A stretch of DNA of 53,957 nucleotides, counting the filler, from Porpidia crustulata (taxonomy: Eukaryota), in the NCBI GenBank assembly GCA_964255105.1. It is 3 parts of 3 records of this genome, joined end to end, with 100 filler letters (N's around TTAATTAATTAA, not from the genome) between each part and the next. Parts side by side here need not be neighbours in the genome. Positions count along the whole stretch, not along the records: positions 36,055 to 53,957 come from CAXUWE010000200.1; 2 more parts are not named here. One strand, 5' to 3'. The notes beneath the pieces are model-generated. The model searched no databases. It saw only the letters and a program-made list of their open reading frames with translations, and was not told where the DNA came from. This document shows positions 31,703 to 53,957 of the stretch, piece by piece (the first letter of the stretch is position 1; each line of letters opens with the position of its first letter). The translations under genes were made by a program, and so were the position numbers.

Positions 31703-34700
31703 ATGGCTACTCGAACAGGGCGGCCCATCGTAAACGCCTCGTCGCAAACCCAACGCGCACGGCGTATCCCTGACCAAGAATGGGACGGCTGGCGTGAAAA
31801 GCTGGTCAGGCTGTATGTGGAGGAAGGTGTATCACGTAAAGAGATAATCGAAATCATGGCTAAAGAGCACAATTTTGTGATAACGTAAGTCAAGACTTGT
31901 CAATAATTTGATGGCATCTTTCTAGTAGAACTCATTAATGAAATGACAGCGACACACAACTCAAGCATCGATTTGGAAAATGGGATGTCAAGAAATTTAT
32001 CAATGATGCTGATATGGCAGTCATTTTATCTTTGAAAAGGAAACGTCAAGCAATGGGCAAAGATATTCTTTTCCAGTATAAAGGGCATATTGTTGAGCAG
32101 GAGCGCGTTGAGCGCGCGTTCAAGCGACGAAAAGATCCTCTCCCATCCCCGACTTGTGAGTGATTAAAAGATTCCTGCAACAAAATCCATTACTTACTTG
32201 ATCTTACAGTCATCCCTGCCTATATTAGAACCTATCAGTCGCGACATTCGAGTCCCCAACGGCCTGTCGATGCCCTTTCAAGTGGTCAGCAAATTGTTGT
32301 TGATGGCAGAGGAACACCAAACTCCGGTGGAACAGCTTACAATTCTCAAAATATGCAACGACGGGGATTCCCGATTAGTGCCATGCCTTCTTTTGATTCA
32401 GCCCTGAACATTGAACTAGCATTTCCTCATGTCATGGACTCAGCTGAAGCTTCCGCAGCCTTAAACGATATGACCATGGTCGATGCTCCTGTTCCCTCGA
32501 TTATTGAGTCGGTTGAGACAATTGAGCAGAACAATCCTTTCCAGACCTGCGAATTGGAGTCTGCAAGCTATGGTACTAATATGGAGCAGATCTTGGATGA
32601 GCTCTTCCCAAGGAATTCCCCTACACGACAGTCGAGAAATAGCAGCGTTCGCCTGTCCGACACGGATTGGCAGGCATTTATGAATTGGTCGCCAGACATG
32701 CTCTCGTCAATTGGAGCATCGGGTGGGACCGTTAGCCCAGCATATCGCCCGTTATCAACATTACCCTCTCGTCGCAGTGACAGTAGTCCTAGCCGTCAGG
32801 GCTTCACCACTAATTACAGATCCGAACGTCCAGATTCATTAAGCCGCTTGATGTCAACAGACGTTGATGCAGAAGTTCAGAATAAAGGTCCCATCATCGC
32901 GGACGGCATAGATCCTACGACACTCGTCCTACCACTTCAACTCATGAATTTGCACCCTACAAAGTGCCACAATATACGTGCACAATCACAACAGTACTCA
33001 GAAAATTCTGTTATTTCTATTCGCGATGATTTAGGTCGTAATAGATGGTTAGAGCCTGAGCTTGAAGACCTTCTCTGTTGGAGCTGTAAATCATTTGCGA
33101 AAGCTGTCCGTAAACGCCAGTCAACAAGAAAAGGGCATAACGATCTACTTGATGGAGAAATTGGCGAATCCAGTGAAAGCCGAGTTTCATCAAGCCCCAG
33201 TGGTCGAGCTAGGAAGAGAAGCTGGCCCGTATCTAATTTCCAACCAAGAAGGACAGGTTATTCTCTGAGTGTCTCACGGGTAGGCATACTTCGAGCAACA
33301 CTTGGTATTGTACTCAATAAAGGATCTAATACTAACGCTTCAGATGACTTTGTCGTGCTAAACCTCAAATTCATGCCTGCCGGGAATGAGCGTACGCAGG
33401 GGGTGTGTGCGACATTTGTCAGAGCAGTAAATGAACTTGCAGAGCCTCGTATCTGTCCATATGTTGCAGTATTCAATGTTGTTCCTGGTGATTCGGAGAT
33501 TTTTCGGTGCGTGTCATACAATGATCTGCCTGGTATTCAGAAGCTTTTCGACAACGGGGAAGCGTCTCCTACGGATGTCGATAAATCTGGGTTCTCTCTG
33601 CTATCGGTGAGGGTCCAAGCTATGCCATCCAACTTCGAGGGCTAATTCGGAAACTTAGTATGCTATTGACTTTGGCTGTTCGGATGTTTTTCGATTTCTC
33701 CTCGATGGTGGAGCCGATACGCAGAATTGTAAATTGTACGTCCTCCGTGCTACATAGCTTCAACACTGCAGCAGAGCTGATTACATACGTAGGTATAACC
33801 AGACAACTGATCTGATTTGCCTCATATGGCTTTCATTTCAAAATGTCGGTTTCGGCGAGCGCATGATCGACAGCAACGAGATATATCTTCAAGACTTTAA
33901 TCAGTGCGTGAGCATGACAGACATGGCTCTTCGCCATGGCTGCGATATTCATAACACAGTTCCCTGTAATTCTAACATACCCAATCCATTATTTCTTATC
34001 AGCAACTGCCTCGACCTCCCCGATACGTACGCTCCAGCTCATGAAGAAGCCCTAATTTACTTCCTCAAGATTGGGTATGATATGGAGGAGCGCAATGAGC
34101 AAGGACTGACGCTATTGCTTGACTTAGCGATGACTCTCACACCATCAGTCATAAAGCTTCCCAAGATTTTAATCAAGAAAGGAACCGAAATTCATGCAGT
34201 TGATATACATGGCTGTGGTGTTTTACATCATGCTTTTATGGGGCGTTTAAGCGACTGGAACCCCATAGGATCCGATTTCTGGGAGAATCTAGGATGTGGT
34301 CTTTGTGAAAGTATTGGGGATCTAATGCTATGGTTTAAGACCTATGATGAGAGGTATGCAGAAGACTATGATGACTTGAACCATGACCCTGGACCGCTTG
34401 TATACAATAAGCAATCGATGAGACATACTCATAGCCACCGTTTGCTTTCTAACATCCGAAACCGAGACGACGTTTGGGGAGCAGATTATCAGCTGCGCTC
34501 TTCAATGTTCAACCGTCATGAAACGTCAGAGTCGAATCTTCTTTATGGTGGCTGTCAAGCAAATCTGAATTCATGTGGTCAATACCTCGATGATCCTGCT
34601 GCAGACGATATGTTCACTGCGGATACAGACTCTGCAAACAACTTTCGAGATCAATTCTTGATTGAAGAATCAAATGCTTCTACAGAAACTGGCGCTGAGG

Positions 34701-35021
34701 CCGACGACCTCTGTTGTGATTCAAATTAATGGGGAGGATAGAGAATCGAATGATTATGTAATTGACTGGATCACTTGCAAAGACCGTTTTGGCGAGACCC
34801 ATTGGATACAAAACCCATCGCAAGTACTTAAAAAGCGTATGAGGTTCAAGTTGCTTACCCTCCTCGAAGCGGGATGTGATCCAAATGTTCTCGACAATGA
34901 AGGTGAACCGCCCAGTGACTACGCTAGACGGAAGAATTTATGGCCGCAATGGACATGGGCACTTCTCAACGCAGGGTATATCTATGACGTGGTAAAAGAC
35001 AGTTGGGTGCGCAGAGTATAG
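31703..35021 (+). CDS. Clr5-domain protein with C-terminal ankyrin-like repeats; multi-exon, apparent frameshift near 34720
   Basis: Clr5-like 'EWDGWREKLVRLYVEEGVSRKEIIEIMAKEHNFVIT|DTQLKHRFGKWDVKK'. Introns start at 31885, 32156, 33607 and ~33736 and keep frame. Ankyrin-like 'IQKLFDNGEASPTDVDKSGFSLL', 'AVDIHGCGVLH', 'LLEAGCDPNVLDNEGEPPSDYA' (the last in a different frame). Confidence 0.72.
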
Positions 35022-36054: not shown

Positions 36055-36057
36055 GGG

Positions 36058-37223
36058 CTAACCAGTTGATGAGGTTAGGGAGATGTTGGTGTCTGGAGGT
36101 TCGGTGACGCTGATGATGTATTCGTGCTGCTGCAGGGTTTTGTTGTCGTCGACGGTGTATAGCATGAGGTGCTTGCCAACGCGGTAGCTGACAAGAGCCA
36201 GGGCGAATGTTGATCCACTCGGGTGGGAGAATCCGAATTTATCAACGGTCCAAGGCATGCTGCTTGTTGTGCTGTTGCTGGCGTAGCGAGCTTGAGTGAT
36301 GCCATCTGCGAAGTTTTGTTCCTGGAGTAAAACAACCAGTTCTTGCGATACGTTTTGGATGTTCTGGGTCCAATACGCGGCAAGGAAGGTGGAATTGATC
36401 CCCGTGTAGCGTCCGTTGAGATCGTCGTCTTTCCAGCCTTGGGCGTCTTCAGCTGAATTTTGGCGTGTCAGGAGTCCATCGTCCGGTGACATGTAGCACA
36501 AATTCTTGACCTATAGGTTGTTTGTTCATTAATTTTGAGAGAACAAAAGGTAGGAGGTACGTACAATTGGGTAGCGAGTACTAGCATAGAGGTATCCGAC
36601 CATTACTGCGATGGGTGTATTAGGCTTGACAGCACGGCTGACAATAGTCACCCCCCAGGCTGTACTGGATTCGGTGCTATTATCCTTGGCAGATTCTCGA
36701 ATCTTATTGTTATTGTCTTGGTAATAAAGTTTGTTGTGCGAGGTGCCATTGGGATCAGTCCATTGCGTTACCGCCAAGCCCGTGTTTGCATATGGTGCTT
36801 GAGTAGCTGACGTAATTAAGGAATTATTGGAGATGAATTTGGCATAGGAGTGGTAGTAGCAGCCTGTTTTCTATTACGCGCAGCCATAGTCCCACCGACA
36901 CCACCACCAATTGCGACTGCCAGTATGATTACGACCATCACTGACAACAGTATAAAAAACGTTTTGCGCTTCATGCCAAGGATGCTGCGCGCCTCTGTAG
37001 GACTTGATGCTTTGGATTGCAAGCCATGACCATCGACAACAACTGGTTGCTCGCCAGCATTGTCGTAGCGGATGATTTTCTCATTCTTGGGATCCTGGCC
37101 CACGATAGGAGCAGCATTGCCATTGTTCTCCAGCCAACGGTTATGGTTAATTTTTAAAGTGCTATGTTAGATGTCCTCTGATGCCGGTATGAGTCCTGTC
37201 ATCAATGGCCTCGATTCTGCCAT
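36058..37223 (-). pseudogene. Type II membrane protein with fungal fucose-lectin-like beta-propeller ectodomain; disrupted and abutting a gap
   Basis: TM 'ILGMKRKTFFILLSVMVVIILAVAIGGGVGG'; ectodomain 'TGLAVTQWTD...KLYYQDNNNKIRES', 'LVVLLQE', 'LMLYTVDDNKTLQQHEY'. In-frame TAA at 37167-37169 and a frameshift at ~36830. Confidence 0.6.
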
Positions 37224-39980
37224 GACATTGAATGTATTAGGGATTTTGACGACAGTTAGTTGCTGTGTCCTATAAATTAAGATACTGAATAATCGTCCGA
37301 TTTAGTTAGTGCGGCTTTAACGTCGTTGAATACTCGGTACTAATGTGCCACTGTGCTATACATAATCATAATCTTGATAAACAGAAGACGGGCCAGGAAG
37401 AATTGCAAAGTTTGAGACTGCCTCATGGATTCAAAAGAAATCTGAACTAGAGAAGAACTGACGGTGAAGTTTGACAGGGTGACAGCAGGCAGGAGGTATG
37501 CACCAAGGCGGCAAAGTAGCTGAAGGATCGGCTCGAAATTGGCGATCGAAAATCAAAAGGGATGAGGCTTGAAAATTCATCACTACGTCAATCAAACAAC
37601 ATCTTCGAGCCGCTCTGTTACCCTGACCTCGCCTCATTATTCCCAATATAAGATGGTAGCATCTTGGTGTGCCGGTTCGTTAGCATAGCAATCGAGTCAG
37701 ACCGACGTGACCAAGGCTCTGGCCTGCATGGTGATATTGTGATATGATTGCACGCTTACATGCCACAGTGTAGTGAGTGGGTGGCGCAAGAACACGGTAT
37801 GACGCCGATAGCTTCTTCTTGTTTTCTGACGAATCTGGCTTATCGCCATTTTTAGCTTAATGTAGACATGGCGACTCCGGCTCTCGCAGTGGATCTTTCT
37901 GCAGTGCGAAGACCAGAAGGAGTGATAGCGCAGGTTTATTGGCCTTCCTTATTATTCATATGTATTGTTCCAATAAGCGGATAGGAGGCAGTGCCATTTA
38001 CGATAATGGACTTGGAAGTGCCAAGAAAGTGGATTACTGAGATGGTTGAGGATTCCGCCGGATATGTGACGAAGCCGTGCGCGAAGGATTCTATCCCTGC
38101 CGCCACCGCATTTCTGCAAAAGCTAGATATTCACTGATGCCAATCCTGTCCATAGTAAGCAGGAAGGTAAATTCTAAGCATTCGAAAATCCTTGAATACA
38201 TCACGACGTGTCGATGTCTGTGAATAGAAAAGTCGTTGCTTCGAGTACAGTTTGCATTGTTTGTTGAGTACAGCTCGTTAAACGATGCGCTACAACTTAA
38301 GCGCAGTCTCAGCCTCTTAGGTGCAGTGGCTGGGTGGCGCGAGTGATACTGAAGTCGTTTACTAGTCCCGCCTAAACGGTCCGCTACACCTAGGGTTAGG
38401 GCTATATCGACTAGTTCTGATGAGGGCGAACAGTTGAGGGGTGTGGACCGTTGCGGGTGTGGGAACGAGTATCACTCGAAGCGTGAATTTCGAATTTCTT
38501 CGGAGCTACATCATTACTTTGAACGGATGTTACTGACTGCTCTCGGCATGATATACGGAAACGAATCAACCCCACTGTGACACAATCACTTTGCGCCTTC
38601 GAACATTCGAGTATTTTTATACTGAGCGTCCTTATTGCCCGCCAACTTCCTGCTTGTCAAGGACGGATGGCATACATAGACGGGATTGGCATCGTTGATC
38701 AGAGCTGGATTTTGCCGGGGCATTACAGACCTATGCTCCCCATACTTCCCCCCCTATCTACATATCCTCCCGATGTTCATTTGACTTTCCCCTGTACACG
38801 TTCTTCAGCTGCCTGAACACACGTCAAAGATGAAGCAAAGGATCAATTTAGGAAGAATCCATCCGCAAGGCTTTGTCCGTCGATGTTAATCAAATCTCGA
38901 GAATGCCGATACTCGGGGTCGCGAAGGAGATATAAAAGTAATTAGAGATGTCGAAATGGGCTGAGCTTGATCATCGAACCAATCAGCTTGTAAGTATATT
39001 CAACGACAAACGTAGAACCTTCACTGTAAATCTCACGGGAAGAATTCAAAGTCAACGCTCTATTGTCCTACTTCAGCCTGTACCGTCGTGGCATTCGGAT
39101 TCGAAGATATTCAAAATGATTTATCGATGTTCGATTGGCACTTTCAGTCAGCCTACCCATCCCAAGCGCCATACCAGGATGAGCAGCATATCAAGCTCTC
39201 CTGGTACCCGCTTTCCAACCTCATGGGAGAAATGCAAGTCTTTGAATGGAATAAGCGATGCCGCCACTTTTACTGTAGTACTCTAGAACACGCGGGAATC
39301 CAACCAGAAATCTTGGCAGAAGGCCGCTTCAGCTCGATCGCGTGTTGTTCTTGAAGAAACGAGAAGTGTCGGCCGATATCAGCTGCTGTCACATAGATAT
39401 TTAGATGTTGTAGCTGGAATCATAGAGATGAAAGTGGAGACGGAAAGATGATACTGAGATAGGGAAAGTGCTTCGATGATGTAGAGGATGAATGATTACT
39501 TAGTCATCGATAGGTCGCTGGCTTCTGCGATGAATCTCGATGTGATAGAGCATTGAATAAGTCGAAGATTGTCGACGTATCCGTTTTGTCCCTTTCTCGA
39601 GGAGTCCTATGGTGAGGTACTATTGCATCTTGCGAGGTTTATATGAGTAACATTCAGGGGAGATTCAGTTAAAGTCATGAGAGCAAAAAGAAGAGGACAG
39701 ATATTAGTGATTTCGAATTATCTTTGTAAGTGGTCAGTCAGTGCATGGTACTGAACGCTTAGCTAGCGATATCGACATATATTTGTCTCATTTGCGGAAA
39801 ACTCTACGCCAGAATTTGAGAGGTATATGACAAACTAAACCAAAGAGCTATGCGCTAGAGGAATAATCTTCATTTACGTCGTTCTATCCTCTTACTCTAC
39901 TCTGACAGTCATAGATTCTAGATTGGAAACGTTAATGCGCTGGTGATAATCCTGACGAGGGCTGAAGCCTAGACGATTCA

Positions 39981-42464
39981 CTATATTGCAGCACCAATTT
40001 GTCCTTGCGCATGCTGCGTTGCTGCTTTGAATACTTCTTCGAAAATGCCTCGGAGAGATTCTGTATCTGTCGCATTGGTGTAGTAGACGTGCAAAAGATT
40101 TTTCTTACCTTGCTCTTGCATTATATTGCGAAAGGGTTGAGCGTAGTAGTCCCTGGCTTCAGCGACATCACTGAAGCAGCTCTCGACGAAGTGACGCTTG
40201 CTGCGGAACTTTTCATCGAACAAATCTGATTTGTTCAGAAACAGGAAGACCGGGACATTGGAAAACTTGGAGAGTCTTATTAAGGGCTGGAACATCAGTT
40301 CTGCGTCTTTAATCTGAGTCTAAAATGGGAATATTAGCATTACATCTAATGGTGTTGGGCTTGATTGTAGCAGTGAACCGTTTTTTTGCTTACTGAGGTT
40401 GTATCTTCGATGAGACATGAATCGAATGCCCCCAGCGCTTCTACAAAAATCAAACAATCCACGTCTGTCATCGTTTGCATCCGATTTTTTCGCTCGCGAC
40501 GGGCACCGCCTACATCGTACACATGATGATTCGATCCTTTGTAACAGAACAGTGTCTCAGTGACTCCAATTGTTCGATTGCTGGCGTGTAAAAAGTCTTG
40601 ATTGGTCGGCAAGTACTCTTTGGAGAACAAGCGATCGATGTTTCTCATATAACTGGCCGCCAATCAGTGGAAGCCGACTCATATTCCTGAATGGAGCAAA
40701 CTACACACTATCCGAGATTGTCGTGAAGGGCAAACTCTCCACCACGTAAGACTGCTTTTTCAATGACCTCGTCACGCCAGAGCTCTTTCATTGGAGTCAG
40801 ATATGCCGATATGTTGAAATAATCGTCAAATCTGGAACAGCCCCCTAAATGGGTGTTAGTCCTTATAATGTGTGGTGCGTGGCTACTAATACATACAGCC
40901 CCCTAAATGGGTGTTAGTCCTTACAATGTGTGGTGCGTGGCTACTAATACATACGTTCATAGTAGAGCCTCATAGCCTCGTTAATTATCTGCTGGTAATT
41001 CTTTCAAATGTTTAGTACCGTTCAAAGATTTTATAGTTGGAGCACTTACCTCCACACTCTTGTCCTGGTACTGGAGGCCTAGTCTCGGCAGTTCCTCGAA
41101 AATAATACTAAGCGCAAAGAGCATGTTTGAGAAGATAGACGGCCGTATATTTTCATAGTCAGTTAATGAAAAGGAGTCGAGTCCATAGATGAGTCTCATC
41201 TGCTTGAGTATTGTAGTCTTACCAGCTTCACCAGCCCCTAGTTGCAAGTCGTCATTAGCACATGTCCAAAACTCAAATAGTAAAACGACACAATTACCAA
41301 GAAGCAGTATTTTAGTTGGCAACTGTTTTCCGTCAGGGTAGCCCAACAATTGATCTTCTGAAGATGTTGAGCCCAGCAGTATTTGCTGATGAACCTCAGA
41401 ACGGAGATCGAGAGGATTGATCGTGGCATAGCGGATATTCGTCGAAGCTTCGCGCTCAGGTCCTCTTCTGTGCCAGAATCTACTTGAAGCTTGTTCAACA
41501 TCTAAGACCGAAATGGGATAATGCTGGGGATTCGAAATTTCTCCTCTGAACACCGGCAATGATAAGACAGAAAGGGTGGATATCTACGAGAGACTAATTC
41601 CAGAAAAGAATGAAGAGGCCCCAATGGACTGAACGCTTGAAGGAATAGATGAGATGGAATCCCGCTTCGATGTCCGCACGTAAACTCGGGAAGAGTGAAT
41701 TTCAGACTGTACACCAGGATCCAGGCCAGTTTTGGGATTGCCTAAAGGTAGTAATACGGACCGCTCGTCTACGCCCGGAGAGGGTTTGATCGTTCTTGTC
41801 GAAGCGGCGTCAGTCATTGAAAAGATAGACGAAGCCATAGAGTCGTTTCCTGCTTCTAGACTAGGTTCCATACTGGCCAATCGCCTAGATATATCTTCGC
41901 TGTTTTGTAAGATACTGCCAATCGAGGTAGCAAGCTTCTCAACTGAGCCTTGAATTTCCACCGTAGTCTCACTACCACACGAAAGTATCAGAGGAACGAT
42001 CACATATTCCACTCAATTGACGTCAATCGTACTTACCACGTCAATATTGTTAGGATGAGGCTAAGAGAGGTTCGTGATTCCCGAACACGGGAGACGAGGG
42101 TGTTGATTCTATGCTCTTGTCGGGCCCAGCGTAGCTTCATGGTTCTAGATAACGGTTGATCTAGCTTAAAGGTATCCAATGTTTGCTCTAATTCAGATAT
42201 AGTCAAGACGCAAGATGTACTTATAACTACGATCGACTCTACCGAAATAGCTGCTCTTCTCGACTGCGGTACAGTGTCCATGCCATGGAGAAAGGGAAAC
42301 AGCTGTGCCAGACAGATCCTGAGGCTTGTTGCTTCTGCGACAACTCTTCGTGCTGTATCTGGAGCTTTTCGTTCCCGACCGATAAAATCAGTGAGTGAGT
42401 TTGCTATCTTGGCCACCGCAGCCGCTACACCAGTGATGGCGGCAATGATTGATAGAGGATCCAT
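39981..42464 (-). pseudogene. HeLo-like (fungal STAND N-terminal) domain fused to atypical G-protein alpha domain; one in-frame TAG
   Basis: Exons 42464-42037, 41971-41298, 41237-41050, 41000-40955, 40844-40709, 40652-40394, 40319-39981 total 2070 nt in one frame. N-terminus 'MDPLSIIAAITGV...APDTARRVVAE...LRWARQE'; G-alpha motifs KILLLGAGEAGKTTILKQM, DVGGAR, LFLNKSDLF, TNATDT. TAG at 41584-41586. Confidence 0.8.
40837..40954. repeat. 58-bp direct tandem duplication covering a complete 52-nt intron plus 6 exonic nt
   Basis: 40837-40894 and 40895-40952 differ at one position (ttataatg vs ttacaatg). Confidence 0.95.
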
Positions 42465-42978
42465 GAAAAGCAACAAGAGCGAGACGTATCAGCGATTAGC
42501 CAGCTGTATCACAAGGGCAGTCAATGCGATAGAGCTGCAAACATATGTGAAATCAAATTCCAGCCTGATAGCGATAATCCGACTGAAGAGGACCGGTGGT
42601 AGCCTTGTGCGGTTCACTGATGTGCAGGCACAGCCGAACGCCCCACTGCCATTGGCACTGCCTTGACTCAGGCGTGTCGGGGATGGATCTTGTGCCTTCA
42701 GCATTGTATGGTCAAGTAAAAAAGTCTTGCAATACCAAAGGCGTTTCGGGTTCCTTCTTTTTATGTGCGGCTCTTTCTTTGATCATCACGCTTGCTCGAA
42801 GTCGTCAAGAAGTCATCTCTCCGGAGGATCGTGGCGAAAAGTGGGGTCAAAGGACCAAGTCGAATTCAGCATGGTATCTAATTTGGAACTCTTCTACTTG
42901 CCTGCTTCTATTCTCCCTCTAATATACGATAAAATTAATATCTGCAATATAGACGGATGAGGTGAAGTAAGACCATTC

Positions 42979-43920
42979 ATGGCGCTAGATACACCCCTGT
43001 CAGTTGTCGGTCTCGTAACTGCCCTCTACCTCTTCATCCGCCTTGCCCTCCACGCCCATATCTACCTCCGCACATCTTCGTTACCCCGCTACATCCACCC
43101 TACCAAACCATCTTGGGCCTTTATCAGCGGTGCTACAGATGGGATTGGCTTTGGATTCGCACAGGAACTCTGCCAGCGCGGATTCCACGTAATCCTTCAC
43201 GGCCGTAATCCGAACAAGCTTCGAGATGTACAAGCGCGATTAGCTCGCGAATATCCTCTAGCAGAAACCAAGATCTTTATTTCCGATGCCTCTCATCTTA
43301 CGGGTGATTTGGAGGAACGAGTACGGAAGTGCATTGAAGATACGGAGTTGAGGGTTTTGATCAACAATGTTGGAGGCCAAGGGGGTCTCACGAGGAAGAC
43401 GTATCAGACGTTGGAAGAGAGTACAGAAGAGGAAGTCGACAAGGTCTTGAACTTGAATGCACGCTTCGCAACTCATCTGACCCGTGCCCTACTTCCCATA
43501 CTTACACGCCACTCGCCCAGTCTCATCATGAACATCTCCAGCAACGTTGTGCTCGGCTTTCCCTACCTTGATGTCTACAGCGGGTCCAAGGGCTACATCG
43601 ACGCTTTCACGCGGGCTCTAAGTGCAGAGATGGTGGCCGAAGGTAAGCAGGTTGAGGTGTTAGGGATACGAGTGAGCGCTGTACGGAGCGCGGGGAACAA
43701 TTCTAGAGAGGGGCTTTTTATTCCCACGTCAAGACGGATGGCAGAAGTCGCGTTGGAGAGGGTAGGATGTGGAAGGGTGCTTCTATGTGCTTTTTGGCCT
43801 CATGCATTGCAATTAGGCCTGATGGAGATGCTGCCAGAGAAAGTGGTGCAGTGGGTCAGTGTGAGCACCATCAAGGGACTGAAGGTCTTGAAAGAGGAGG
43901 AGGAGAAAAGGGAAAGGTGA
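42979..43920 (+). CDS. Short-chain dehydrogenase/reductase (17-beta-HSD / 3-ketoacyl-CoA reductase-like), intronless
   Basis: N-terminal hydrophobic anchor, 'SGATDGIG' Rossmann motif, 'LINNVG', catalytic 'YSGSK'. Confidence 0.9.
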   Translation: MALDTPLSVVGLVTALYLFIRLALHAHIYLRTSSLPRYIHPTKPSWAFISGATDGIGFGFAQELCQRGFHVILHGRNPNKLRDVQARLAREYPLAETKIFISDASHLTGDLEERVRKCIEDTELRVLINNVGGQGGLTRKTYQTLEESTEEEVDKVLNLNARFATHLTRALLPILTRHSPSLIMNISSNVVLGFPYLDVYSGSKGYIDAFTRALSAEMVAEGKQVEVLGIRVSAVRSAGNNSREGLFIPTSRRMAEVALERVGCGRVLLCAFWPHALQLGLMEMLPEKVVQWVSVSTIKGLKVLKEEEEKRER

Positions 43921-44445
43921 GCTGGATGGGAGAGAAATACAAGGCCTGTAATCTGACCGTATGCTTACGGTCTCGAAGCCAGCAAGACACAGAGCCTTAG
44001 GGACGCCGGTGTAACTGCAAATGTCTGTATAGTTGGTTACATTTATTTTAGAGACTACTGAAATCGCTAACTTAGAAGCGTCAAAATCATTCAGGTGATA
44101 CAATCTGATAAATGAAAAAAGTTGTCCTCGCAACACCCTCCACAAGCCATTTAGTTCGCTCAACGAAAGTCAACAGGAAGAGGAGAGAATGGGAACATCT
44201 GCCACTTGTAATATGTCTTTCAGGTCGGGTATACCAGATGTATCGAAATGGCGCTAGAGCAGCGGAGCCCGCTATCATCAAAGCTTTCGATAGCCACCGA
44301 TCAGACCATCCGCATTTGATAATTGCGGACCCAGCGAAGGTCTCATTTGGGAGATCACCGTTCTCTTGGGCATTGTCTTTACTCTTTATATCTGTTTGGT
44401 GACGGCGCCCAGTTCCCTTCCTGAACCGATGCTGCTCTTGACGTC

Positions 44446-45798
44446 TAATCCAGCGAGCAAAGAACCTCAGCGCTCATCAGCATAGACTATTCGCTACAAT
44501 TCCCACCCTCCGGAGTGTTGTACTTGTACAATGCTGGTGCAAGATACAGCTCTACACTCGCATAGTCTTCAACTCGATCATCCTCGTCGCCCTCTTCATC
44601 GTTCATCAAATCCATCGTTTGGGCATTGTACTCAAAAGAGCCTTCCAAATACGAGAACCTGAATTCGGCCTTCTGTACTGACATCTCGATATCTAGCTCA
44701 AGTGCTCGTCGAGCAATCTCCACGATATGAGCATCAGTGGATGTCTTTACATGATTCAGACGTAGATGTTCCATGGCCGAACGGCCGACTTGTTCACTGA
44801 TGCTGCGAAGTCGCTCACTCGACATGTTCTGTTTCGCAAGCCGTGCCGTCATGGTCAGCCAATCCTGATACTGTGATGATTGTGCCAATTGGGTGGTTGA
44901 GGTCGACGTTACTAGTCTGGTGTGTGAGTTTCTATGCTTGATGGAGCAGGCAATCTGGACTTACGAGGGACAATAGCAACCGTAAGGTCTACAAGAGTTT
45001 TGGCATCGCCAGCCCACCGAGACCTACCGAATACTTCTTTCTCTAAGATAGCCCATATGAAGGCCTGTAATATCCTCGAGACGCCTCTTGGCGTCTCAAA
45101 ATACTGCTCGATGTTTGTTCCAATGGAGTGTAACATCTGGGCAAATTTCGAGGATAATGGGTCTTTTGAGAGGACACTCTAGCATCTGCTATCGAACTCG
45201 GGCGGAAGACTGTTTGCGTTTTCGACCAATTCTCAATTACTACCCTGAGTGTCTTGGTTTCCTTTACAAAATATCGGTCATCTCTTTTCTGCTTATCCGC
45301 CTCGTGCATTTTCGCGATCAGCGTCACCATTTTTCTCATCTCTCGGTCTTGATCGTGAATGTGCTGCCCTACTTTCTCGAGAAAACGTCTATCGCCCTGG
45401 GAGCTCGTTCTTGAAGCAAGCGCACGCACTTTCGAAGGAAATTCGTCCGACGAGGACCCAGAACTCTTAGAAGAGGATGATTCCAGCTCCTCCGACTCTA
45501 TCAATTCCGGCTCGGCGGAGGCTCGATCCATACTATCGACAGACTCCTGGGCTGGTCTCTGGTTCTGTTTGTCTCTCGACTTGCCCGACCCTTTGGGCTT
45601 CCGATGTTCGTTTCCTCGATCGCGCCTCGTCATGCCAGCAAACCACGAGAGCTTCGGGTGTCGTTTATCCGCCATATCTCGATCTTTGTATCTCGAAGAA
45701 AGCACCGCAGAAGATGATGCACCGGTATGATTGTCTAGTAGGCGAGTGCGCTGTGGTGGCAAGCTTCTATCAAGAAAGCTGCCTATACTAGATTGCAA
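44446..45798 (-). pseudogene. Fungal protein of unknown function, apparently disrupted
   Basis: Three consecutive ORFs (45043-45798, 44912-45136, 44487-44888). A frame change at ~45180 has no credible intron. An intron lies at ~44963-44912. TAG at 44487-44489 interrupts the protein-like C-terminus 'LAPALYKY..GGNCSE*SMLMSAEVLC'. Confidence 0.5.
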
Positions 45799-46506
45799 GG
45801 GCTTTGTACCAGATCACGAATCCAAAATACAGCATTGCCAACCATGGCTTCGAGGATTCTAGTGTATGTGCTTTTTATACTTATGAGTGAAAGTGGGCCT
45901 CTGCGGGAACTGCAGAAAGGTCCCCAAATTCAATGGTGGGAGGTTCACTCTCACAGCTGCTTCATTCCTTATTCATGGCCAAGAACGAGTGAAGCTCGCA
46001 TATGACATAGTCATATGCACATTTCCTCGCGGTTCACGAAGAAGCAGTGAATGGCAAGGCTCCAGCTCCAGCATTATCAAATTCCATTCTGCGTCACTGA
46101 TACACAAAGCACGTGTGTACATATGCACTTCACATGACTATCGGTCTGTACCAATATCAAATCCAGAGAACCTGTCTTCGAATAATGGAACCAGGAAATC
46201 ACATCAACGAGCGCGCCGCTGCCACCGGCAAGATTATGGTCAGGCCGAACCCCAAGACGGAGCAAAAGAGCTGCAGATGATTCCGCCAGGTGTAGCTTTT
46301 GGCGTACTCATCGAGGGCCCTTTTTGTATCTACACCAACCCTAGAGCCTAGGTGCGCTTTCTTCACAAGCATACAGGCATTCTTCCCCCTCTAAAATGTC
46401 TTTATCATACTAGAAAGCAACTCTTACTACTTTACTCCTTTCACCTCTAATCTCTGCTGTGCTCTCAGCTCCTTCAATTCTCTATTTTATTCCTTCTCAT
46501 CACGCT

Positions 46507-47560
46507 CTATCGTAAGTAAGGGGATATCGAGACGCCGGCGGAAGTTTTGTTTGATGTTTTTTTTGCTGAGTTGGTTTTTGTTGTAGAGGAAGAGTTACTT
46601 CGTTCTTCTGTATTAGCTAAGAGACTGACTAAAACTTGTGCAGACGGAGTGGATCCATTAAATGGATCAGCTGGTGCACCCTTTGTGATCATATTTTTCC
46701 AAAATTCGTCAAGGAGGTCTTCATCTCCTTCTCTCCTGAAGGATGTTGTCTACAATAACCCCCTTCCCCACGAACTTGATACCAAAACACCATCCAACAA
46801 GCCATCTCCACCCACAAATTCCCACAATCCTCAAAACACATCTCTATCTCAGCCCCCCATTCAAATCTTCCCAAACCTTTCCAGATACAGCATCCTTTTA
46901 ACTTCAAATCCCTTCTCACAATTGGCCGAGTACATGTTTATACCGTGGACACAAAATACCACGAAAATCTTTAGGAAATAAGGACTATATTTTACAGTCG
47001 GATTTAAAGCTTCGAACTCTCCTGCTAAAAAGCGCAAAACTACCAGCAGAATCCCAAAATCTATGGGCCGAATAATCACTAAGAGCATTAGCAGCGCATT
47101 GACAAGCTTATAGTTGAGAACATCCTGCAGAAACCCAAGAACCCAGGTGGAATATCAAAAACATGCATGATCGAAAGTATATGGAGGCGATCGTAGCTGT
47201 TTTGAAGATTTAGTCGGGGCGAATTTCGGGGGGGCTGCGCTTTTCTTGGGGTTTTTTGATCTTTTTTAATTTCCAATCCTCCAATCCTCCCTTGCCTTTA
47301 TCTCCACCACAATCTGATCATCTCCCACCCCATCGACGCTCGCTCATCTCCCCCATCATCAAAACCCCGCAACTCTCTCATCACCCTCTTTTCTCTTCAT
47401 TCTCCCTTCTTTCACAGCTTCTCGCCAAAATTCCTTCATTATCATATTGCTCATCAAAATAGAAAGTGCGGAAAGTGGGGCGATCGAGGTGCGAGATGAT
47501 GAAGATAGATACAGCGACACCTGATACGTAAATACTTTACACCACCCCCATATCCAAAAC
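46507..47560 (-). pseudogene. Degenerate coding relic of unknown origin
   Basis: One minus-strand frame reads as long protein-like blocks ('TWVLGFLQDVLNYKLVNALLMLLVIIRPIDFGILLVVLRFL...LYLERFGKI*MGG*DRDVF*GLWEFVGG...EDLLDEFWKNMITKGAP') broken by isolated stops. Confidence 0.3.
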
Positions 47561-47650
47561 ACCCATATATGCGTCATCATTCACGTATCCATCCGACTCC
47601 TTTTGATGACCTGTCCCCAATGTCACGTATTACACACCTCCCGAAACATA

Positions 47651-49066
47651 TCAAGCCGCCGTAACTCCCTGCCCCTGCTTCTGACTCACCCCAGCTCCCG
47701 CACCACAAGACCCCACAGGCCTCCTCTCCTGCACAGCCTTCCACGCGCAATCCTCCACCTGCAGCATCCGATCCATCGACGCCACGGCCGCCGGCTGCGC
47801 GAAAATGGTGATGTTCGCTCCGTGTGGGAGACCTTCATATACTATAGTCCGTTAGCGACAAGGCTCAATAGTCCGGCTATCAAAGGGTGCGTTACCGGTG
47901 GTGTTGAGAGTGCGACTCAAGTCTCTCCTAGGTAGAGGTGGCGGAGGGGCGTGGTAGGCGCGGCCACCGATACCGGGACGGCCGAGGCAGAGGGACATGA
48001 GGGTGTCGTAGGCGGTGCGGATTTGGAGGCCGGTGAGGGTGACAGGTTTGATGGCGGAGATGGCCAAGGTGCAGGATTCTGCGGGTATGGGTCAGCGGAT
48101 CTGAATCTTTGGGCTGAAGGGGGATTCTGGTTTTGCGGTGACGGACTCGAGTGTAGGAATTGAGGTTTATTGGGAGCGATTTCCATGCTGATGTTCAGGT
48201 GCTGGTAATCCGGCACTGGGATTTGATTGCAATCGGCCACGGCGAGGGCTCCGAGCGCGGCGTCGCATTCGAAGTTCTCATTTTCGAATGCTAGCCCTGG
48301 ATCCCACCAGGGGATCGTGCCGCCGATTTCCATCTTCAGAGATTGTTGCTCGAAGTATTCCGCCCGTCGGGCAAATTCAAAGCTGAGCTCGGTATCTGGC
48401 GGTGCTCTATTTTCGGCGTCTTCTTCGGATTTGCTGAGGTGGCGTGCAATCGATGGGTCGAAATTGCCAGGCATTGGCGCGTGTTTGGGCGCGCCGGTCA
48501 AGGTAATTGTGAGGAATAGAGAGCTTGATGCTTTTGAAGTCCTGGAATCAATAAAACGGTGCTAAGAAAATGGTGGTGCAGCGAAGTTCTTACGAAAAAG
48601 GCCAGAGATATCTGTCTGTGGTGCTGTAACGTAGTTGATTAGATTATCGAAGTCCTTTGTGATAAAGCCTCCAATTCCATTATTTTTGAAGACGCAGTAA
48701 TTGATTAGCTGATCTGCAGCTGCCCTAATGTCGTTGGGTCTGGCATTGTATGTCATGGCTCTAGCAGGACCTGCTATCTCAACGGAGATCCTACAATCAT
48801 CTAGGGAGGAGGTCTTAGTTGGACCGAGCGTGATCTCGATGGGGTCGGTCTTACTAACCAACGGCAGTACTCCATGGCAAGGCATATCGGGCTCCTGATG
48901 TATCGATGGTATAAGGTACATTCGTCATTCCCATGGGCAAATTCGTTCCCGCCGAAGTGCATGAAGAGAGCTCCAAATCCATTCCATAGCCTGCATCGCA
49001 AAATAAGAAGTTGTGCAGAGGGGGGTTTGGGCGAGCAACGAATCCCAAACCAGTAAGATTAGACAT
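47651..49066 (-). CDS. Cys-containing, secreted-type protein of unknown function, multi-exon; signal peptide not located
   Basis: Exons read 'LFCDAGYGMDLELSSCTSAGTNLP..YALP', 'DCRISVEIAGP...IRAAADQLINYCV..GIGGFIT', 'FECDAALGALAVADC', 'SCTLAISA...CLGRPGIGGRA', 'GLPHGANITIFAQ...DCAWKAV', separated by GT-AG introns. Stop TGA at 47651-47653. Confidence 0.6.
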
Positions 49067-51019
49067 TGGTCAAGGATAATTATCGTGATACGCTGTAGAT
49101 GATGGGAGAATAGATCTCCTCAAAATCTTTGTAGGCATGATGTATTGGCGCGACATGCGGGTGAGTCTGCGCACGTTGACAAATCGGTAGATATGCGATA
49201 GACCTCTGCGGCAATTGAAGATAGGCGAAACAGACAAACTTTTTTCCGAATAAGGTCTATATTCATTAAAGCGAGGTGACCCTACGTTTGAAGTGAGGTT
49301 TCATTCTCATGGCTCTGTCGGTATTAACGACATGGCTGTAGATGGTTGAATTGAAGTGGTCATCTGCGGTTGACTCTGCAAGATTCTTGGGCATTCACAT
49401 AAATCCACAGTTTCATGGAGAAGCTGTGAGTCAGTGAGCCGGGAATCAGCAAGACAATCTTATTGCTTTAGAGTTCCATACCTCCATCAATTGGTGTCGC
49501 GAATTGATACATAGATTGATAGATCTGAAAAGCTGAGAATAGTATTCGTAATCGTCTTTCAAGAGGTCTACCAATCCATTTAGTACCTCTGGAATGTGAT
49601 GTCCATTTGAAGTGGTCGTGCGTTTCTTGTAGTAGTATAGCTGAGCCGCTCGTAGCTAATCAAAAATTTCTATCAAGAGACGAAATGTTGAGGAGGAGGC
49701 GTCTTGAAGCAGTTCGTCTGCCAGATCCATTGGTAATCTCTCCTCCCTAATATTGGCCGTCCCTAGCTCTCAAGGTAGTAGCCATCACATTGAGCACTTT
49801 TGCTAGAATCCTTGTTAATAGCTCTAAAGGCCATCTTCCAAACGTGAGTGTGCTTGCGGGGTGGCACGGGCCAAGTCACCTCGATGAAATATATGTATAC
49901 ATGGGATGGATTGCAAGCTCGAGCCTGCCGTAACTCAAATGAGTTGAGATTGATTGGCCCTGTCTCTGTGACGCAATACAGATAGAACAAGTTCTCCAAA
50001 GCAAGGTGTGGTACTATACAACGACTAGAATATAAGGGATAGCGACACGATCCCGGGATTACGATCAGAATGCAAGCCAATGAAAAAAACCAACTTCGAG
50101 GTCAGCATCACTAGAAGAGTGGAAGAAGTGTATGCGGGAGTAGGCCATTTAACCGTTTGAGCGCGTAGAAAATTCGCGTGAAAGTTAAAAAGGAGCTTAT
50201 GACGGATTTCGCATGTAGAATGAACAGCTACATAAATGACCTGGACCGCATCAAAACTATGCACAGAAACTGGTGTTGTCAGTCAACAAGAGGCTTGCTC
50301 TGACTGGTACAATAACAGCTTTGAACGGGTGCTCGCAGGACATCAGATCGGACCATTGAGCCTTGCCACAAAGCACTCTCATAGTATACCTCTACAATAG
50401 GCTCCGCTGACATCCGCAAGAGTCGATGATTAGTTGAAGGAGGAGAGACACATGGCGATTGGCCCGAGGTACAGACTCCTTGGTGTTTGACTGCCAATAG
50501 AAGCCAATGTAGGTAAACACTATTTTATTGTAGGCGAAGCAGAGACAGCAGAATGAGTCACTGCTATGCTATTATTATGACTACTGTCATTATCACTTGG
50601 GTAGTGGTAACAGGGAGCTTGGAGGCTGAGGTAAAGGACACTTTGCTTCACTCGATCTGATAGCTGATGAGGGCGGAAAACGCGACTGCTCCCGCTGCTC
50701 TCGTCACTTAAGCGGCCAGCTAGGCTTAAAGCAGGCGTATGACATAATCAGCCGAGCTGTCTATTCCGTACTGGGAAAGGTCATTCTTTTTTTTATTCTT
50801 TGCAGGGCTGAGAAGGCCACATCGACTTAATCTTTCAAGTCAAGTCATAAGGACACCGATGCGCTTGCAGAACTCCAAATTCTCTTAATTACTCCACATA
50901 CTCTCTTCACTGTTACCTCCCCTCACATAGTCTCCTACACCCAACGTATATTCAGCGACGCCGTGACCTCTGACTAGGACTCACAACCCCCCAAGTGTAG
51001 CTTGTTTAAATCGTTCAAA

Positions 51020-53447
<2,428 letters not shown>

Positions 53448-53957
53448 ATGCGGTTGCGTGTATTCGGGATACAAAAGAAAATGGTGGGGATCCGGGACGG
53501 TGGTCACCGGGGGGAGACTATGTAAATTAGTTGAGCTGTGCGACTTTTTTTTTGTAATGTAGGTAGATTGCATGACCTGCGGCTTTGGCTGCGATGTGGG
53601 ATACACAAATTTTTCGAAACAAAGAGGGTTGGTCGTCCTTTGTGTGTTCAACTTGGTGGGAAGATTTCCTCCATGCATCAATCTCTCCCTTCCCCTTTCT
53701 CTCAGCACCTTTGATGCAGCTTCATCTCTGCGACCAAAACCTTGCGCTACACGGAACAGCCGGACGGGGAAAAGATGCTCGAGTCGAGCCCACACACACA
53801 CGTTTCCAATCTACGGCTATCCATTCCGTAAGAGAACTACGAGGAAACAACGATAGCAGCATCAAGTCCGCCCCTTTCGGACCGTAATCATGAAGATCTC
53901 ACTCCGTTGTATTTACTCACTAGCATACATAATAGGAACCCACATGCAATTCATACC

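Follow-up and report, generated by a model that had tools for sequence, protein, structure and literature searches.

A conserved ascomycete gene family joining a predicted HeLo-like module to a probably catalytically impaired G-alpha domain, with an interrupted copy in Porpidia crustulata

We analyzed a gene for a two-domain fusion protein in a 53,957-nucleotide stretch of DNA from Porpidia crustulata (assembly GCA_964255105.1). This stretch, three genome parts joined end to end, is referred to as the window and all positions count along it; the gene lies in the part taken from record CAXUWE010000200.1 (positions 36,055 to 53,957). At this locus lies one copy of an ascomycete gene family that is both conserved and fast-evolving. 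Its proteins are 600-750 amino acids (aa) long, and its organism-named members belong to lichen-forming fungi. Three parts make up the family architecture: a predicted helical bundle of the HeLo-like type (PF17111) whose N-terminal helix is transmembrane-like, a disordered linker bearing a conserved Ser/Leu-rich motif of ~35 aa, and a complete, apparently group II-derived G-alpha domain that keeps the nucleotide boxes but has lost its catalytic Gln and the N-terminal site for a lipid anchor. The descriptive part alone, namely that the fusion of a HeLo-like module with a catalytically impaired G-alpha domain is real and conserved and that the window copy is interrupted, is very probably correct. 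The whole statement, in which the family works by an MLKL-like mechanism and the window copy has been inactivated, is put forward tentatively, as a reading that falls a little short of probable.

Results and discussion

Rebuilt from the window, the minus-strand gene (42464..39981) consists of seven exons with a summed length of 2070 nt (690 codons, the terminal TAG counted), and all of its introns are GT..AG. The original prediction for this locus had the exon structure right, as the seven GT-AG exons, the 690 codons and the junctions 42037/41971 and 41298/41237 were all confirmed from the window sequence. It had also described one open frame of 690 codons, which has to be given up: codon 272 is an in-frame TAG (41586-41584), a fact at which only the word 'repaired' had hinted. 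As stated there, the predicted protein has no MG lipidation or myristoylation site and instead starts with MDPLS (MDPLSIIAAITGV). The features of the gene are listed here, one per line.

42037..42464, minus strand: exon 1, which holds the start codon and encodes residues 1-142 of the predicted PF17111 N-domain, with the hydrophobic N-terminal helix MDPLSIIAAITGV among them
41298..41971, minus strand: exon 2, running from the last part of the N-domain through a variable linker, the conserved motif and another linker into the start of G-alpha (KILLLG)
41518..41616, minus strand: conserved linker motif, SSFFSGISLS followed by the stop and ISTLSVLSLPVFRGEISNPQHY; common to G-alpha, Ras, RhoGAP and CRIB fusions
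41584..41586, minus strand: premature in-frame TAG, codon 272, within the conserved motif of exon 2; Q, E or D in homologs
41050..41237, minus strand: exon 3, with the P-loop (G)AGEAGKTT at 41212-41235 followed by the start of the helical domain; PF00503 E 6.2e-10, profile positions 29-86
40955..41000, minus strand: exon 4, 15 codons of the helical domain, with an AG acceptor and a GTATGT donor at its flanks
40837..40954, no strand assigned: 58-nt tandem duplication, 2.0 copies, 98% identical with 1 mismatch, each copy comprising the 52-nt intron 4 and 6 bases at the start of exon 5
40709..40844, minus strand: exon 5, helical domain, ...GEFALHDNLGY; PF00503 profile positions 111-141
40394..40652, minus strand: exon 6, with switch I HASNRTIGVTE and switch II DVGGARRERKNR (40481-40516); PF00503 E 5.8e-23, 82.0 bits, profile positions 144-228
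39981..40319, minus strand: exon 7, with G4 box NKSD, G5 box TNATD, a divergent C-terminus and the terminal TAG; PF00503 E 6.5e-14, 52.2 bits, profile positions 232-331

Homologs matched this model along its length. Exon 1 showed 45-54% identity to 13 homologs at 100% query cover, tblastn with the homolog P0001 spanned 41991-41065 in the region of exon 2, and exon 3 was 53% identical to the canonical group II protein P0165. When full-length homologs were used as tblastn queries, the exons were matched in order with E down to 1e-66, and the exon translations are colinear with the 13 homologs in alignment. The full G-alpha fold claimed for the C-terminal half, helical domain included, was recovered by PF00503, which covers profile positions 29-331 of 333 in four pieces over exons 3, 5, 6 and 7; the pieces in exons 6 and 7 each exceed the gathering cut-off of 48.8 bits. 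The duplication at 40837-40954 gives two equivalent donor/acceptor pairs, and both splicing at the outer sites and double splicing (+2 codons) keep the frame.

A search with the 142 aa of exon 1 returned 13 longer proteins at E<=0.001. Eleven of these are 605-744 aa in length and carry a G-alpha domain as indicated by Pfam scan (PF00503, E 6.4e-52 to 1.4e-89); the two organism-named members among them come from Cladonia borealis (P0001) and Psora testacea. The remaining two are a 299-aa protein of Haloplaca labelled partial and a 380-aa protein of Heterodermia that runs on into G-alpha-like sequence. All four organism-named relatives of exon 1 are from lichen-forming fungi. With 11 of 13 homologs fused, the N-terminus and the G-alpha domain can be treated as one gene, as had been proposed, and the two halves are not always separate genes elsewhere. 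We consider it very improbable that the model wrongly joins an N-domain gene to an adjacent G-alpha gene and that the TAG is where the first of them normally ends. Such an artefact would account for the 271-codon frame that the TAG terminates and for the two short homologs of 299 and 380 aa. However, the stop sits in the middle of the motif, and the frame runs on for another 96 codons in exon 2 up to the P-loop, colinear with the full-length homologs. Further, the window sequence contains no in-frame ATG between the codon-272 TAG and the P-loop, and of the two short homologs one is partial while the other extends into the G-alpha-like region.

The window probably carries a recently arisen null allele of the gene, or a young pseudogene. 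Where homologs carry the motif ...LSGISLAQVSNLSVLSLP..., the window has ...FSGISLS-stop-ISTLSVLSLP..., and the TAG aligns with Q, E or D. Termination at codon 272 would leave an N-module fragment of 271 aa at most, and since no in-frame ATG precedes the P-loop, no separate G-alpha product is expected from this copy. The fusion gene is otherwise intact, with seven in-frame exons and consensus splice sites throughout. Two further residues are missing from this copy, the Arg of switch I and the Trp in the conserved KKW. Its nonsense codon and its 58-nt duplication, a structural change, are both young. Repeat-induced point mutation was considered as the origin of the stop and rejected, as TpA/ApT (0.80) and (CpA+TpG)/(ApC+GpT) (1.18) resemble the values found elsewhere in the window and nothing stands out in the GC profile.

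That the window gene is functional after all, with the TAG representing a sequencing error, a strain polymorphism, a site of read-through or a codon removed at the RNA level, seems quite unlikely to us. In its favor, a single codon is the sole lesion in a gene whose seven exons are in frame with consensus splice sites, the nucleotide-binding boxes are retained and the signature of repeat-induced point mutation is absent. A-to-I editing is known to convert UAG to UGG in sexual-stage transcripts of some Pezizomycotina, yet the residue found at this position in homologs is Q, E or D and never W. The TAG is also present in a Logan contig of run X1 (11,115 nt, depth 11), which is identical to the window over the complete range 39900-42600, with 0 differences and both TAG and duplication included; this contig was assembled separately, though from reads that are probably those behind the window assembly. 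Because the separate contig is identical, neither the TAG nor the duplication is an artefact of the window assembly. Runs X2 and X3 of the same study, from other organisms, gave no cover of the locus at 80% likeness, and the look-up of runs turned up none from RNA. Finally, the additional losses of the switch I Arg and the KKW Trp fit relaxed constraint.

Profile comparisons provide good evidence that the N-domain belongs to PF17111, a family currently named PigL_N in Pfam and formerly Helo_like_N. Exon 1, scored alone, reached 20.2 bits (E 4.1e-4, profile positions 1-110 of 209), which is below the gathering cut-off of 27.2 bits. All 13 close homologs matched at E<=0.01 with 17.3-27.8 bits, and one of them (P0009, 27.8 bits) passed the cut-off. 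In the wider family of 133 relatives (alignment A2), PF17111 was detected in 118, SesA in 13 and HeLo in 1 at E<=0.01, with a best PF17111 E-value of 1e-12. A full HMMER search with exon 1 against 1.84 billion representatives yielded 797 matches at E<=1e-3, of which 298 reach E<=1e-10; many are ~143 aa long and correspond to gene calls of exon 1 only. Further, the A2 profile aligned with residues 1-138 of P0286, a STAND protein composed of PF17111, a NACHT-type (NPHP3_N) domain and ankyrin repeats, at an hhalign probability of 97.5% (E 5.8e-12, 135 columns; hmmsearch E 1.3e-10). The N-terminus had been called HeLo-like from the start, and the matches in 118 of 133 relatives together with the alignment to a NACHT-ankyrin N-terminus are in good agreement with this, exon 1 alone being sub-threshold. 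No Pfam match to NACHT, NB-ARC or C-terminal WD, ANK or TPR repeats was obtained on any exon or in the 13 homologs. A comparison of the A2 profile with PDB sequences gave nothing significant; I-CreI variants were the best matches (E 0.008), and HET-S and MLKL were not retrieved.

The homolog P0013, modeled by AlphaFold with the family alignment (pLDDT 81, pTM 0.75), is predicted to form a helical bundle at residues 1-188. The top 26 VIA-align matches of this bundle included MLKL (4btf_A, Z 8.8, rmsd 2.6, 100 aa) and the MLKL N-terminal domain (6ux8, Z 8.2); the plant coiled-coil (CC) domains of Rx (4m70, Z 8.7), NRG1.1 (CC-R, 7l7v, Z 8.0) and MLA13 (Z 7.1) were matched as well, as was AtMLKL3 (Z 7.0), with the reservation that Z-scores below about 13, and so the MLKL and CC scores of 7-9, may be generic for helical bundles. 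The model is thus compatible with kinship between the N-domain and MLKL or CC domains, though not decisive. PF17111 is described as the HeLo-like domain of fungal NLRs and has been aligned to the MLKL executioner domain (PMC9815663), and the activity of HeLo/HELL domains is reported to depend on an N-terminal helix with transmembrane propensity (PMC10197012). In a side observation, the N-terminal helix of the family (window 42390-42464; A2 positions 11-30; consensus MDPLSVAASVVGLL) matched the influenza M2 transmembrane peptide at E 0.05-0.3. This match is almost certainly due to chance, though it gives an idea of how transmembrane-like the helix is.

The closest stand-alone relatives of the fusion G-alpha domain are group II G-alpha proteins (alpha-2 subunit, GanA, GPA2) of 350-366 aa, those of lichen fungi being ~42% identical, and the domain appears to descend from fungal group II (GNA-2/MagC/GanA). 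We compared the motifs column by column. All 33 canonical G-alpha proteins show GAG[ED]SGKST, R[LI][RK]TTGI[TV]E, DVGGQRSERKKW, NKxD and TxATD, while the window has GAGEAGKTT, SNRTIGV, DVGGA, NKSD and TNATD. G1, G3, G4 and G5 are therefore retained in the window, while the catalytic Arg of switch I is changed to Ser and the catalytic Gln of switch II to Ala. In the fusion proteins the P-loop Lys-Ser/Thr is kept, as are DxxG and NKxD in most. The switch I Arg is retained in 9 of 18, and the catalytic Gln in none of the 18 with aligned switch II, where A, T, S, G, D or other residues are found, compared with 33 of 33 canonical proteins. The domain is internal and lacks an N-terminal myristoylation or palmitoylation site, and its C-terminal tail is divergent. 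With the catalytic Gln lost and the nucleotide boxes kept, the G-alpha domain should bind guanine nucleotide but hydrolyze it poorly, making it a putative pseudo-GTPase and not a timer. The earlier description as a GTPase switch accordingly needs revision, given the absence of the Gln from all aligned fusions and from the window, which lacks the switch I Arg besides. As for the stand-alone group II proteins, those of lichen fungi (Lecanoromycetes, P0164-P0177) mostly start with MCF or MCL and so differ at the myristoylation glycine, and those of Eurotiomycetes (Chaetothyriales, Eurotiales, Onygenales) start with MGC.

A quick maximum-likelihood tree (IQ-TREE, 44 rows) separated 16 fusion G-alpha domains from 28 canonical ones by a branch with 97% SH-aLRT. 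The window G-alpha has a branch length of 1.88 compared with a median of 0.14 for the end branches of the 44 rows. The fusion branches are long, and long-branch attraction may therefore lie behind the grouping. Mean pairwise identity among eight close paralogs and orthologs was 0.88 for the N-domain, 0.82 for the linker motif and 0.72 for G-alpha, and in distant pairs the values were 0.42-0.43, 0.49-0.51 and 0.29-0.31, respectively. G-alpha, normally ultra-conserved, thus evolves faster than the N-domain in these fusions.

The linker motif lies ~60-80 variable residues past the bundle and reads approximately S-x-L-S-G-[ILV]-S-L-[AS]-[QED]-[VI]-S-N-[IL]-S-[VIA]-x-[SA]-L-P...[DE]-[LI]-x-N-x-x-x-Y. 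With a loose pattern, 33 of the 70 N-domain proteins that reach 280 aa were seen to contain it, as against none of 120 canonical G-alpha proteins. In the models of both P0013 and P0009 the motif has a pLDDT of 80-88 while its flanks are below 50, which suggests that it may dock on a folded part of the protein.

The N-module has other partners than G-alpha. We ran a Pfam scan on all 56 proteins of at least 300 aa among the best 150 representatives and found G-alpha in 13, Ras/Roc in 5, RhoGAP in 3, PBD/CRIB in 2 and GIT_SHD in 1, the other 32 showing PF17111 alone or no match. Using P0001 as query, the ESM Atlas contained three Ascomycota-only clusters with the module. These relatives and clusters are as follows.

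Relatives with other GTPase or polarity partners: P0135, P0143, P0145, P0159, P0160, P0129, P0133, P0155, P0077, P0157, P0118
ESM Atlas cluster 1: 94 members, representative of 644 aa, G-alpha in 87%
ESM Atlas cluster 2: Ras, 77 members, PF17111 in 12%
ESM Atlas cluster 3: Cdc24/RhoGEF, 51 members, PF17111 in 12%

Cdc24/RhoGEF is thus probably a further fusion partner. In light of this range of partners, the idea that G-alpha specifically replaces a NACHT domain was too specific, as the same N-module also occurs on Ras, RhoGAP, CRIB/PBD and probably Cdc24. None of the five Ras-type fusions has a CaaX end. Since these Ras proteins lack CaaX and the G-alpha fusions lack an MG site, the N-module may stand in for the lipid anchors of proteins that normally reside at the inner face of the plasma membrane. 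Copies of the module were also seen at the head of histone-deacetylase (HDAC) proteins of 1500-1650 aa from two lichen fungi of the Teloschistales (P0284 and P0285, 60-62% identical to P0013), and other module proteins (P0035, P0077) have a DUF7923 or beta-lactamase domain; some of these HDAC, DUF7923 and beta-lactamase fusions may be merged gene models. The A2-based search for longer proteins covered those of at least 1480 aa and gave three matches, two with an HDAC domain and one NACHT-ankyrin protein.

On the MLKL-like reading, the N-module would carry the protein to membranes and the hydrolysis-deficient G-alpha 'pseudo-GTPase' would be the variable part, acting as sensor or decoy. Exposure of the N-terminal helix would depend on the state of this G-alpha domain with respect to nucleotide or partner, and the output would be membrane perturbation or cell death in a context of surveillance or non-self recognition. 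This reading is suggested by the homology of the N-domain to NLR effector domains, by the identity pattern of a conserved effector and a variable sensor, by the loss of catalysis, and by the long branches together with the null allele. We infer a cell-death or immune function from the N-domain family only. The term 'GTPase-gated' should better be replaced by 'nucleotide- or partner-state-gated'. In a broader form, Pezizomycotina would hold a set of non-NLR MLKL-like executioners, each with a HeLo-like permeabilizing module, a latch motif and a copy of a dead G-alpha, Ras/Rho, RhoGAP, Cdc24 or CRIB protein as integrated decoy or sensor. Tampering with G-protein signaling by a partner, competitor or parasite, or non-self contact at fusion sites, would then trigger membrane attack, and the lichen G-alpha expansion would serve immune or partner surveillance. 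In this full form we regard the proposal as unlikely.

A near-equal rival, explaining much of the same evidence, is that the PF17111 module and the motif constitute a non-lethal targeting device for membranes or polarity sites. It would replace lipid anchors and position atypical GTP-locked G-alpha, Ras, RhoGAP, Cdc24 and CRIB proteins, for example in developmental or symbiosis signaling of lichen fungi, with no cell death involved. We see this as possible, and on balance improbable rather than probable. Membrane targeting by the N-module would be a step common to this account and to the MLKL-like one. The targeting account is favored by the MDPLS start of the G-alpha fusions in place of an MG(C) site and the CaaX end missing from every Ras-type fusion. 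Module and motif also occur on Ras (5/56), RhoGAP (3/56), PBD/CRIB (2/56), GIT_SHD (1/56) and the Cdc24/RhoGEF cluster, all of them plasma-membrane GTPase-signaling components. The presence of the motif in 33/70 module proteins, the neutral Pfam name PigL_N and the absence of an oligomerizing trigger from the module point in the same direction. However, it is unusual for a working signaling subunit that the G-alpha domain evolves faster than its supposed anchor and that the catalytic Gln is lost in 18/18 aligned fusions. Further, the N-domain is homologous to N-terminal effector domains of NLRs, and the long branches and the null allele resemble those of conflict genes.

Several observations weigh against the MLKL-like mechanism. 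Exon 1 alone and 12 of the 13 close homologs remain under the PF17111 gathering cut-off. In the VIA-align comparison IncA (Z 10.2) and designed bundles equal or exceed the MLKL and CC scores, and a Foldseek search of the P0013 model against the PDB returned nothing at E<=0.001. When P0009 was modeled at full length, both domains came out well folded, but at a pTM of 0.52 they showed no confident packing, and no structural basis for gating was seen; a complex prediction of its N-module (1-330) with its G-alpha (355-696), run without alignments or controls, scored 0.00 and speaks neither for nor against such packing. A HeLo-type executioner would be triggered by an oligomerizing NOD or an amyloid motif, and the module has neither. 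Partners such as RhoGAP, CRIB and probably Cdc24 are not switches and fit a plain localization domain equally well, as does the replacement of lipid anchors on G-alpha and Ras. Finally, no NLR or HET gene was recognized by Pfam among 16 long open reading frames (ORFs) at 28-54 kb of the window.

Among these 16 ORFs, Pfam recognized only a short-chain dehydrogenase (SDR) and an HSP70. The SDR gene (42961-43917, plus strand; adh_short E 1.5e-24) is divergent from the fusion gene and 497 bp apart from it. The HSP70 gene (51620-53346, plus strand; E 1.8e-83 and 1.7e-128) has one short intron. The ORFs at 32164-34726 (plus strand) gave no Pfam match.

Significance and comparison with known systems

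The window gene alone is probably dead, and its value is that it points to the family. Until now, HeLo-like domains have been familiar as the N-terminal effectors in fungal NLRs and in amyloid-triggered killers, and the extra G-alpha proteins have been a curiosity of lichen genomes; that both meet in one protein family changes the reading of each. The lichen G-alpha expansion may not represent ordinary GPCR signaling, because the Gln is missing, G-alpha is fast-evolving and the module also occurs on Ras, RhoGAP and CRIB proteins. HeLo-like modules, in turn, may be subject to regulation other than NOD oligomerization or amyloid templating.

The G-alpha expansion of lichen fungi is already known. 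According to Armaleo et al. 2019, Cladonia grayi has five divergent G-alpha paralogs of the MagC type, and Endocarpon pusillum has such paralogs too (PMC6652019), which is restated in a 2025 review (PMC12161586). These paralogs resemble the fusion family in their group II-like divergence, and the homologs of the window gene include a Cladonia borealis protein. They are probably the same family. Armaleo et al. 2019 treat them as G-alpha subunits, and the passages concerned mention neither a HeLo-like domain nor the missing Gln (PMC6652019); no N-terminal domain is mentioned in the text on these G-alpha proteins in either PMC6652019 or PMC12161586. In public databases the fusion proteins appear as 'hypothetical' or 'G-protein alpha subunit domain-containing'. 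Full-text searches directed at this architecture, in a literature collection with most subscription journals outside it, turned up no account of the HeLo-like/G-alpha fusion, the missing Gln, the shared motif or the Ras, RhoGAP and CRIB sister fusions.

Catalytically impaired G-alpha proteins comparable to those of the fusion family are A. flavus GaoC and U. maydis Gpa4. GaoC carries Ser in place of the catalytic Gln and, unlike the fusions, consists of a G_alpha domain only (PMC5869405). With the fungal HeLo-like (HELL, PF17111) effectors and NLR N-domains (HELLP, HET-S relatives), the fusion family would share the N-domain family, the hydrophobic N-terminal helix and the helical bundle. It differs from them in lacking NACHT or NB-ARC, a repeat domain and a C-terminal amyloid motif, and in carrying G-alpha (in relatives Ras, RhoGAP or CRIB) instead. 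A long N-terminal extension combined with a G-alpha-like domain of degenerate catalytic residues is also found in plant XLG1-3, where the N-terminus is a Cys-rich/NLS region unrelated to PF17111. MLKL, composed of a four-helix bundle, a brace and a pseudokinase, and the plant MLKLs would share the logic of an executioner-type bundle, a conserved linker and a catalytically dead enzyme-fold domain, the homology of the bundles being only suggested by Z-scores of 7.0-8.8 that lie in the generic range. The regulatory domain would be a pseudo-GTPase in the fusion family and is a pseudokinase in MLKL, and the family thereby offers a candidate fungal counterpart to MLKL-type regulation.

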